IMG/VR virus record: IMGVR_UViG_2541047798_000002
DNA: 40,694 bases
Source of the DNA: a virus
Lineage: Duplodnaviria > Heunggongvirae > Uroviricota > Caudoviricetes
Reading direction: 5' to 3' (one strand)
Under the pieces are notes generated by a model. The model was not told where the DNA came from and made no database searches. It was given only the letters and a program-made list of their open reading frames with translations. Shown piece after piece: positions 37,749 through 40,694 of the stretch (the first letter of the stretch is position 1; the number at the start of each line of letters is the position of its first letter). Position numbers and translations under genes: made by a program.

Positions 37749-40694
37749 ATGACAGATATCACCGCAAATGTTGTGGTAAGCATGCCTTCGCAACTCTTCA
37801 CTATGGCGCGTTCTTTTAAAGCAGTAGCTAATGGCAAAATTTATATCGGTAAAATTGACACTGACCCTGTAAATCCTGAAAACCAGATTCAGGCTTATGT
37901 GGAGAACGAAGACGGTTCTCACGTTCCTGTTTCGCAACCAATAATCATTAACGCTGCCGGATATCCGGTATATAACGGACAGATTGCCAAGTTTGTAACT
38001 GTGCAAGGCCATTCCATGGCTGTATATGATGCGTATGGTTCGCAGCAGTTCTATTTTCCCAATGTGCTGAAGTATGATCCTGATCAGTTACGGCAGCAAT
38101 TAGAAGACCCAGATGGAGCGAATAAATACCCAAAACTTCAGATAGCAAGATGGAGAGACAGTTATGATGTAAGAGGTTGGGGGGCTATTGGTGATGGTGT
38201 TCATGATGATACATCAGCTCTATCAGAATTACTTTCTGTTGCAACAGGTGGTGAAAAGATAGATGGGCGAGGGCTTACTTTTAAAGTATCAACTCTTCCA
38301 GATGTCAGTCGATTTAAAAATGCTCGTTTTTTATTTGAGAGAATACCGGGTCAGCCTCTTTTTTATGTTTCTGAAGATTTTATCCAGGGAGAGTTATTTA
38401 AAATTACAGATACACCGTGGTACAACGCCTGGACGCAGGATAAAACGTTTGTATATGACAATGTCATCTATGCGCCTTTTATGGCTGGAGACCGCCATGG
38501 TGTAAATAACCTCCATGTTGCATGGGTTCGCTCAGGAGATGACGGGAAGACCTGGACAACGCCGGAATGGCTTACAGATTTACATGAAAACTATCCCACA
38601 GTTAACTATCACTGCATGAGTATGGGGGTTGTCAGAAATCGCCTTTTTGCTGTAATTGAGACGCGGACCGTGAGCGGAAATAAACTGCAGGTTGCAGAGT
38701 TGTGGGATCGCCCAATGAGTCGCAGCCTTCGCGTTTATGGTGGTATAACGAAAGCAGCAAATCAGCAAGTCGCTTATATTCGCATTACTGATCACGGATT
38801 ATTTGCTGGTGATTTTGTCAACTTCTCAAACTCTGGTGTTACAGGTGTTACCGGGAATATGACGGTGACTACTGTTATTGATAAAAATACTTTTACAGTT
38901 ACGACGCAAAATACCCAGGATGTGGATCAGAATAACGAGGGTAGATACTGGAGTTTTGGTACATCATTTCACTCGTCACCATGGAGAAAAACCAGTCTTG
39001 GAACTATTCCTTCTTTTGTTGACGGAAGCACTCCTGTTACTGAGATTCACAGTTTTGCGACGATTAGCGATAACAGTTTTGCTGTTGGCTACCATAATGG
39101 TGATATTGGTCCACGCGAGCTTGGGATACTCTATTTCTCTGATGCTTTCGGTTCTCCTGGTAGCTTTGTTCGCAGACGCATACCTGCAGAATATGAGGCG
39201 AATGCATCTGAGCCATGTGTAAAATATTATGATGGCATTCTGTATCTGACGACCAGGGGGACATTAAGTACTCAACCCGGTAGTTCATTGCACAGAAGCT
39301 CTGATTTAGGTACATCATGGAATTCTCTTCGCTTCCCAAATAATGTTCATCACTCAAACCTTCCTTTTGCCAAAGTTGGCGATGAGCTGATTATTTTTGG
39401 CAGTGAGCGCGCATTTGGTGAGTGGGAAGGAGGAGAACCTGATAACCGTTATGCAGGAAACTATCCAAGAACATTTATGACCAGAGTTAACGTCAATGAG
39501 TGGAGTCTGGATAATGTAGAGTGGGTTAATGTTACTGATCAGATTTATCAGGGCGGAATAGTTAACTCTGCGGTTGGTGTTGGTTCAGTTTGTATCAAAG
39601 ACAACTGGCTGTACTACATTTTCGGTGGGGAAGACTTTCTAAACCCATGGAGCATAGGGGATAACAACAGAAAATATCCTTATGTTCACGATGGTCACCC
39701 GGCTGATTTGTATTGTTTCAGGGTGAAAATTAAACAGGAAGAATTTGTTTCAAGGGATTTTGTCTACGGAGCCACTCCTAACAGAACGCTTCCTACTTTT
39801 ATGTCGACGTCAGGCGTGAGGACGGTTCCTGTACCCGTTGATTTCACAGATGATGTTGCCGTCCAGTCACTGACTGTCCATGCAGGTACATCAGGACAAG
39901 TTCGCGCGGAAGTCAAACTTGAGGGTAATTACGCCATTATTGCGAAGAAAGTACCGTCTGATGATGTTACCGCTCAGAGATTAATCGTTAGCGGCGGTGA
40001 AACAACGTCTTCAGCAGATGGTGCAATGATAACGTTGCATGGTTCCAGAAGCAGTACTCCACGTCGCGCGGTATATAACGCACTCGAACATCTTTTTGAG
40101 AACGGAGATGTTAAACCTTATCTTGATAATGTAAATGCTCTTGGTGGTCCGGGAAACAGGTTCTCGATAGTTTATCTTGGCTCCAATCCTGTGGTTACCA
40201 GTGACGGAACATTAAAGACAGAGCCGGTCTCTCCTGACGAAGCATTGCTGGATGCCTGGGGTGACGTCAGGTATATCGCTTATAAATGGCTGAACGCTGT
40301 CGCTATAAAGGGGGAAGAAGGGGCGAGGATACATCATGGTGTAATCGCGCAGCAACTTCGTGATGTTCTTATTTCTCACGGACTCATGGAAGAAGAAAGC
40401 ACAACATGCCGCTATGCCTTTCTTTGCTATGACGATTATCCCGCAGTATATGATGACGTCATTACTGGCCAAAGGGAAATGCCGCTGACTGATAATGACG
40501 GGAGCATCATTGTTGATGAGGATGATAATCCAGTGATGGTAATAGAAGACATCATTGAGCGCGTTGAAATAACGCCAGCAGGATCTAGATGGGGGGTCAG
40601 ACCTGATCTCTTATTCTATATCGAGGCGGCATGGCAGCGCAGAGAAATGGATAAGATAAAAGCTAGGTTAGACTTAATAGAAGGGAAGCACTAA
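37749..40694 (+). CDS. Tailspike: P22-type head-binding domain fused to sialidase-like (probable endo-N-acetylneuraminidase) domain with C-terminal intramolecular chaperone
   Basis: 981-aa ORF; N-terminal ~110 aa ([53 protein letters not shown]...) is the conserved P22/Sf6/HK620 head-binding module; two Asp-box motifs SGDDGKTW and SSDLGTSW; C-terminal ~150 aa resembles autoproteolytic chaperone domains of endosialidases/tail fibres. Stop codon at window end. Confidence 0.8.

Follow-up and report, generated by a model that had tools for sequence, protein, structure and literature searches.

The protein reported here has its closest described relatives among the endosialidase tailspikes of phages CUS-3 and K1F and the tailspikes of P22, Sf6 and HK620. 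The CUS-3 enzyme, siaK1 (ABQ88383.1/CAJ29292.1; Stummeyer et al., 2006; King et al., 2007), is annotated in its GenBank record with direct-assay evidence for endo-α-sialidase activity (citing PMID 16689790), and a review counts CUS-3 among the characterised endosialidases, describing its tailspike as a chimera of a P22/Sf6/HK620-type N-terminus and a K1F-type catalytic body (PMC5380687). The K1F enzyme, endoNF (1v0e, 3gvl, 3gw6), is built of a propeller, a β-barrel, a stalk and a self-cleaving C-terminal chaperone. Here we describe a gene with a comparable chimeric organization at one end of a stretch of 40,694 nucleotides (nt), IMG/VR virus record IMGVR_UViG_2541047798_000002 (Caudoviricetes), hereafter the window. 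Because of its three-module architecture, its identity to the CUS-3 enzyme, its conserved functional residues and its position as the last late gene, its product is very probably a tailspike that destroys the receptor, belonging to a P22-like temperate phage (Lederbergvirus) with specificity for K1-encapsulated Escherichia coli. Within the endosialidase tailspike family it is an allele of CUS-3 siaK1 and, as such, is already known.

The gene is a single uninterrupted open reading frame (ORF), which begins with an ATG at 37749 and ends with a TAA at 40692-40694, this stop codon being the final three bases of the window. The gene, its immediate upstream signals and the segments of its product, numbered by amino acid (aa), are as follows:

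37749..40694, plus strand: endosialidase tailspike gene, orthologue of CUS-3 siaK1 (981 aa plus TAA)
37666..37685, plus strand: terminator-like hairpin with a T-run, 3' of ant, inside the 100-nt spacer that is the 'bsq1 boundary sequence' of the CUS-3 annotation
37737..37740, plus strand: GGAG ribosome-binding site, 8 nt ahead of the tailspike ATG (direct sequence reading)
37749..38087, plus strand: P22-family head-binding (virion-attachment) domain, aa 1-113 (Pfam PF09008 Head_binding, the full profile, positions 1-113 of 113, E=3e-66)
38088..38183, plus strand: inter-module linker, aa 114-145 (P22-family likeness stops at about aa 118-126 and K1F likeness starts at aa 145)
38184..38384, plus strand: endosialidase N-terminal extension, aa 146-212 (Pfam PF12218 End_N_terminal, E=3e-37)
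38385..39734, plus strand: catalytic six-bladed β-propeller, aa 213-662 (Pfam PF12217 End_beta_propel, full profile, E=1e-233)
38532..38555, plus strand: Asp-box 1, SGDDGKTW, aa 262-269 (exact string)
38718..38966, plus strand: β-barrel domain inside the propeller, aa 324-406 (Pfam PF12195 End_beta_barrel, E=1e-46)
39297..39320, plus strand: Asp-box 2, SSDLGTSW, aa 517-524 (exact string)
39735..40199, plus strand: tailspike stalk, aa 663-817, the end of the mature protein (Pfam PF12219 End_tail_spike, E=7e-78; the 1v0e alignment ends at aa 817)
40200..40691, plus strand: C-terminal intramolecular chaperone/Peptidase_S74 domain, aa 818-981 (Pfam PF13884 over aa 818-878, E=2e-10; 3gw6)
40200-40202 and 40215-40217, plus strand: Ser818 and Lys823, which correspond to K1F Ser911 and Lys916

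The six Pfam domains are collinear in the protein and all score well over their cut-offs. Searches against the PDB recover the same arrangement: K1F endoNF (1v0e/3gvl) matches aa 145-817 collinearly with E=0; the endoNF C-terminal chaperone construct 3gw6 matches with E=3e-72, its alignment reaching aa 979; and aa 1-118 match Sf6 gp14 (7sg7, E=4e-67) and P22 gp9 (1lkt/2vky, E=1e-47 to 5e-53), with the HK620 tailspike N-terminus also among the matches to the head-binding module. These domain and motif matches lie far from chance level. Over aa 1-118 the head-binding domain is ~93% identical to that of Sf6 and ~72% to that of P22 (hand counts on the alignments). The PDB chains of the P22, Sf6 and HK620 tailspikes match only the N-terminal ~120 aa, and their bodies, unlike that of the window protein, are O-antigen-specific endoglycosidases, P22 gp9 being annotated in its PDB entry as an endorhamnosidase. 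The N-terminus of the K1F enzyme is in turn a T7-type adapter (PMC5380687), in contrast to the P22 head-binding domain of the window tailspike. An earlier note on this DNA, written from the sequence alone, had proposed a P22-type head-binding N-terminus of ~110 aa, two Asp-boxes and a C-terminal chaperone of ~150 aa, which together make a three-module chimera of the K1-endosialidase type. Its reading agrees with PF09008 and the P22 and Sf6 structures, with the verbatim presence of both Asp-boxes, with PF13884 and 3gw6 (the chaperone module measures 164 aa) and with the order of the Pfam domains together with 99% aa identity to CUS-3 siaK1. The chaperone sets the protein further apart from the P22-type tailspikes: to our knowledge, those of P22, Sf6 and HK620 have no self-cleaving C-terminal domain.

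Among the homologues that the earlier note had named for comparison (K1F, K1E and CUS-3), the CUS-3 endosialidase is the closest. The two proteins have the same length of 981 aa and the same three modules, and 971 of the 981 residues are identical; the gene is 98.8% identical to CUS-3 siaK1 (CP000711.1) in nt over its full length. The surroundings are likewise shared: upstream lie the same ant gene and spacer as in CUS-3, and downstream of the tailspike the same 90 nt. Five of the ten differences fall in the head-binding module (V9I, P43T, A49V, S98A, P121T) and five in the chaperone module (A832T, I932M, M967I, D968E, K969R), and over aa 122-831, which take in almost all of the mature catalytic protein, identity to the CUS-3 enzyme is 100%. 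Of the 35 nt mismatches to siaK1, 26 cluster within the first 300 nt and none falls at gene nt 601-2400, a distribution that marks a boundary of recombination where the virion-attachment module joins the enzyme body. Over the catalytic part, aa identity is 64.9% to K1F, 59.6% to K1E and 58-60% to the K1G/K1H/63D-like and phAPEC8-like phages. The tail fibre QTH80017.1 of Escherichia phage vB_EcoP_ZX5 (Uetakevirus, epsilon15-like; MW722083.1, locus L012 2542-5661) also has the same endosialidase body and chaperone, nt 522-2914 of the window gene being matched there at 99.6% identity. That protein differs in being longer (1039 aa) and in having a different N-terminal attachment module, and its phage has an unrelated temperate podovirus backbone. 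The match points to a recent exchange of the enzyme body among unrelated podovirus backbones. Phi05_2388 B and Phi05_1999 B are listed with vB_EcoP_ZX5 as carrying the same endosialidase body.

The functional residues of endoNF could be placed on the window protein by a HMMER alignment to the endoNF chains combined with their PDB numbering; the offset is +100 up to a 7-aa insertion that K1F lacks (FVDGSTP, aa 423-429) and +93 beyond it. Mutant chains validate this numbering, with an Ala standing opposite R554 in 3gvj and another opposite Ser818 in the S911A construct 3gw6. Five K1F residues, H350, R549, E581, R596 and R647, are described as catalytic or substrate-binding and intolerant of mutation (PMC12632334). 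All five are conserved (1v0e/3gvl/3gvj alignment) as H250, R456, E488, R503 and R554 of the window protein. Against the reading of a catalytically dead receptor-binding protein that only binds, all five residues and both Asp-boxes are intact; nothing was found in favour of that reading, which we regard as having a negligible chance of being correct. Ser818 and Lys823, in the context NPVVT/SDGTLK (the stroke precedes Ser818), align with K1F Ser911 and Lys916, reportedly the autocleavage dyad of endoNF (Schulz et al., 2010), and the window protein thus resembles the K1F enzyme in its propeller, β-barrel, stalk, conserved residues, putative dyad and chaperone.

By analogy with P22 gp9, K1F endoNF and the CUS-3 enzyme, the protein would trimerise, its C-terminal domain (aa 818-981) serving as an intramolecular chaperone that nucleates the folding of the stalk; this domain would then cleave itself off at Ser818 by means of the Ser818/Lys823 dyad. 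The resulting mature trimer (aa 1-817) would dock on the P22-type tail hub of the virion through the head-binding domain, and the propeller, aided by the binding sites of the β-barrel and stalk, would depolymerise the K1 capsule's α-2,8-polysialic acid, thereby allowing the virion to reach the outer membrane. Endolytic cleavage of α-2,8-polysialic acid by the window protein is predicted from the catalytic region that it shares, at 100% identity, with CUS-3.

The genomic setting is that of a P22-like late operon. The tailspike is the last late gene and stands behind immI, in the order mnt/arc/ant/tailspike of the P22 layout; the tailspike genes of P22, Sf6 and HK620 are likewise placed after immI. 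The late region holds a complete P22-type set (terminase, portal, scaffold, coat, gp4, gp10, gp26, gp14, gp7, gp20 and gp16), with intact ORFs of P22-like sizes from terminase to gp16, and the Pfam families of the neighbouring genes are of P22 type, namely gp10, gp14, gp7, gp20 and gp16, followed by mnt, arc and ant. The window as a whole is a gene-trimmed prophage, bounded by the integrase stop codon at one end and the tailspike stop codon at the other, and cut inside the att sites. The genes flanking the tailspike and the integrase are:

1..1074, minus strand: HK022-type integrase, which stands at the other prophage end and defines the integration module (97.2% aa identity to HK022 Int, 74.9% to lambda Int)
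35404-35940, minus strand: 178-aa homologue of ClpP-family serine proteases (Pfam CLP_protease, E=2e-11; PHROG 'head maturation protease')
35940-36194, minus strand: mnt, immI
36222-36443, plus strand: arc repressor, immI
36440-36661, plus strand: 73-aa ORF between arc and ant (phrog_11805)
36725..37648, plus strand: antirepressor ant, directly upstream of the tailspike (Pfam P22_AR_N and P22_AR_C)

A published comparison found arc apparently absent from the ant moron of CUS-3; unlike CUS-3 as there reported, the window prophage has arc (PMC2629481). The ClpP-family homologue adjoins mnt on its downstream side, within the immI/ant moron region; it has no relation to the head genes and is absent from CUS-3. 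PADLOC, applied to the tailspike and to the genes of the immI region, the ClpP-family homologue included, gave no match to a defence system.

The attachment site of the prophage could be read from related contigs. In contigs with an identical integrase, of which one (L005) is 100% identical to window 1-7074, torS adjoins the integrase; in contigs with an identical tailspike, torT lies downstream of it, and two of these (L002 and L003) are 99.98% identical in nt to window 27749-40694 (12.9 kb). The sequence of contig KE700561.1 (GCA_000458645.1) likewise matches window 1-7074 at 100%. Each of the flanks (L005 7075-7330 and L002 13362-13574) aligns to one half of the annotated HK022 attP, the halves meeting at (T/A)AGGTGAA, and the two thus represent attL and attR, the att cores lying ~74-80 bp before window position 1 and 622-628 bp past the window end. 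An exact-substring search for a common core in the attL and attR flanks returned nothing of 10 nt or more, the only shared core being the (T/A)AGGTGAA obtained via the HK022 attP alignment. Because of the torS and torT neighbours in the identical contigs and of the flanks matching the HK022 attP halves, the prophage is placed by its sequence at the HK022 attachment site, torS-torT, and not at that of CUS-3. The latter phage reportedly integrates at argW (King et al., 2007). Between the tailspike and the P arm of the HK022-type attR lies an 84-nt relic of the 3' end of a CUS-3-type int (L002 13270-13353; in the M15 locus, L004 13386-13469), which suggests that the tailspike block came from a CUS-3-type phage and was grafted onto a backbone with the HK022 int and att.

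The same relic, as a trace of past rearrangement, bears on whether the gene might sit intact in a defective or cryptic prophage, a leftover never built into infectious virions. In keeping with such decay are copies of the gene broken by insertion sequence (IS) elements, which weigh, as the substitutions relative to CUS-3 may, against our reading of a working receptor-destroying tailspike. In M15 (NZ_CP185789.1, L004 9050-13061) the gene is split by IS903B, and decay thus occurs in the lineage, the window copy being intact; in FY26 (NZ_CP101741.1) and 2022E04-002 (NZ_CM132301.1) it is split by IS3-family elements. The split copies in these three genomes are independent inactivations of the endosialidase in resident prophages. 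The ten substitutions that separate the protein from the CUS-3 enzyme fall in the head-binding and chaperone modules; all are conservative and some are common to other natural alleles. Set against the idea of a relic, the tailspike ORF is full length and free of frameshifts, the P22-type morphogenetic ORFs are all of normal size, the HK022-type int is intact, matching attL and attR halves flank the element, and the identical protein is found in 55 blocks of the assembly collection, with the same neighbour genes in the 24 contigs read. We therefore consider a defective prophage improbable, and keep to the reading of a functional tailspike of a temperate phage.

The earlier note had further taken the prophage to be CUS-3-like. 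This holds for its late and tailspike half and fails for the rest. Against the whole CUS-3 genome (CP000711.1), 43% of the window aligns, with a mean identity of 94.5%; CUS-3 covers 72% of the window beyond its first 20 kb, at about that identity, vs 13.5% of those first 20 kb, and the integrase and the torS-torT site are of HK022 type. In its early half the prophage is similar to Sf101 and to lambdoid phages of the HK106/mEp506 type, and the nearest phages are CUS-3, phiv205-1 and vB_EcoP-720R6. The backbone is a mosaic in which a CUS-3-type late/tailspike block is combined with an early region of another kind and an HK022 int/att module. Identification of the prophage with phage CUS-3 itself was rejected, since it agrees neither in similarity across the genome, nor in integrase and attachment site, nor in neuO.

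In CUS-3, two copies of an 11-nt direct repeat, TAAATATAAAA (locus L001 9028-9038 and 9881-9891), enclose 853 bp in which lie the promoter region of neuO, its AAGACTC repeat tract and its coding sequence; the second copy overlaps the neuO stop codon. In L002 (12947-13635 region) both flanks are conserved, at 96.9% and 98.8% identity, around one copy of TAAATATAAAA with nothing in between, i.e. a precise neuO-empty site; 3' of it, CUS-3 homology runs 84 nt into the CUS-3-type int end and then switches to the HK022 P arm. A search for a neuO-sized ORF downstream of the tailspike in this sibling contig found none, and both L002 and L003, which encode the identical tailspike protein, precisely lack the 853-bp cassette. 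The expectation that a capsule O-acetyltransferase gene would lie just outside the window is thus contradicted in these siblings; of the two things which the earlier note had hoped to see in the flanks, matching attL and attR halves are present and neuO is absent, both being read in the sibling contigs. The same torT-site prophage is seen with neuO, as a cassette of 776 bp, in the complete genomes 19AR1321 and 19AR0253. Because these two genomes have neuO and L002/L003 do not, the cassette is polymorphic in the torT-site prophage. Both the mosaic backbone and the neuO-empty site are variation of the kind expected in lambdoid and P22-like phages.

The association with K1 hosts, also proposed by the earlier note, was examined in complete E. 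coli genomes (n=5426) by querying the tailspike-torT junction first by itself and then joined to a 700-nt segment of the polysialyltransferase gene neuS from the kps cluster of UTI89 and taking the difference, since the chimeric query alone is ambiguous. The neuS segment added exactly one place in each of the seven genomes with the junction (VR50, AR_0017, M15, OZ546925, OZ546911, 19AR1321 and 19AR0253), compared with 324 extra places overall (~6%); the positive controls CE10 (O7:K1 in its record) and IAI39 gained one place each. Because all seven junction genomes are neuS-positive vs ~6% overall, a K1 host is well supported for this prophage lineage, if indirectly, and the claim stands at the level of the lineage. 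The torS-torT prophages of VR50, AR_0017 and M15 are especially close, with tailspike-torT junctions 98.8-99.4% identical to that of the window prophage, a neuO-empty site and neuS-positive hosts. They differ from it in that the VR50 tailspike has seven aa differences and in that M15 is 97.5-99.6% identical over the compared stretches 29202-30952 and 35382-40694, with no match between them. The tailspike region has no 100% match in the complete RefSeq E. coli genomes, the best being the IS-disrupted copy of M15 at 98.5%. E. coli strain 998 (NZ_CM132938.1 3348562-3349423) carries the tailspike 3' end and downstream sequence and shows no extra neuS match; here such a prophage may have a host that is not K1 or from which neuS has been deleted.

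These data also bear on specificity. Tolerance of O-acetylation varies among endosialidases, and this prophage lineage occurs both with and without neuO; hence one might suppose that the enzyme has shifted to O-acetylated polysialic acid, to the alternating α-2,8/2,9 polymer of K92 or to another capsule, away from plain K1. The mature catalytic region (aa 122-817) is, however, 100% identical to that of the CUS-3 enzyme, and any specificity would therefore be that of CUS-3; moreover, every genome with the shared junction is neuS-positive. Such a shift is accordingly judged highly unlikely beside plain K1 specificity.

In CE10 (NC_017646.1, ~839-841 kb), IAI39 (NC_011750.1, ~789-790 kb) and ~15 more genomes, the tailspike, its downstream sequence and a lambda/HK022-like P arm match the query only to position 862, before the HK022 core. 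In these genomes the tailspike block lies at a different chromosomal position and occurs with and without neuO. Their placement indicates that this tailspike block has a third integration specificity. We lean, by a slight balance, towards a broader proposal: the tailspike-(neuO)-int' block would be a mobile module found on at least three integration backbones (the CUS-3 type, with an annotated IntS adjoining the tailspike; a type that has a lambda/HK022-like P arm and occupies a second chromosomal position; and, at torS-torT, the HK022 type), in which neuO would form a discrete cassette of 776-853 bp, bounded by TAAATATAAAA and gained or lost precisely. There would then be K1 lysogens that carry an endosialidase prophage and are unable to O-acetylate their capsule.

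As a discovery the gene itself carries little weight, since the enzyme, the origin of its modules and the chaperone that cleaves itself off are already well characterised in CUS-3 and K1F. Its value lies more in being a reliable marker of a host lineage that is, or recently was, K1-encapsulated. The label 'CUS-3' is unsuitable for the prophage, and O-acetylation of the capsule is not to be assumed from its presence. The endosialidase body occurs in 194 of the 5426 complete genomes of E. coli, as against 161 for neuO, a difference that bears on epidemiology in which neuO serves as a proxy for the phage. If the proposal of a mobile block with a separable cassette is true, neuO carriage would be separable from carriage of a CUS-3-type prophage, and surveys that equate the two would miscount K1-specific prophages.

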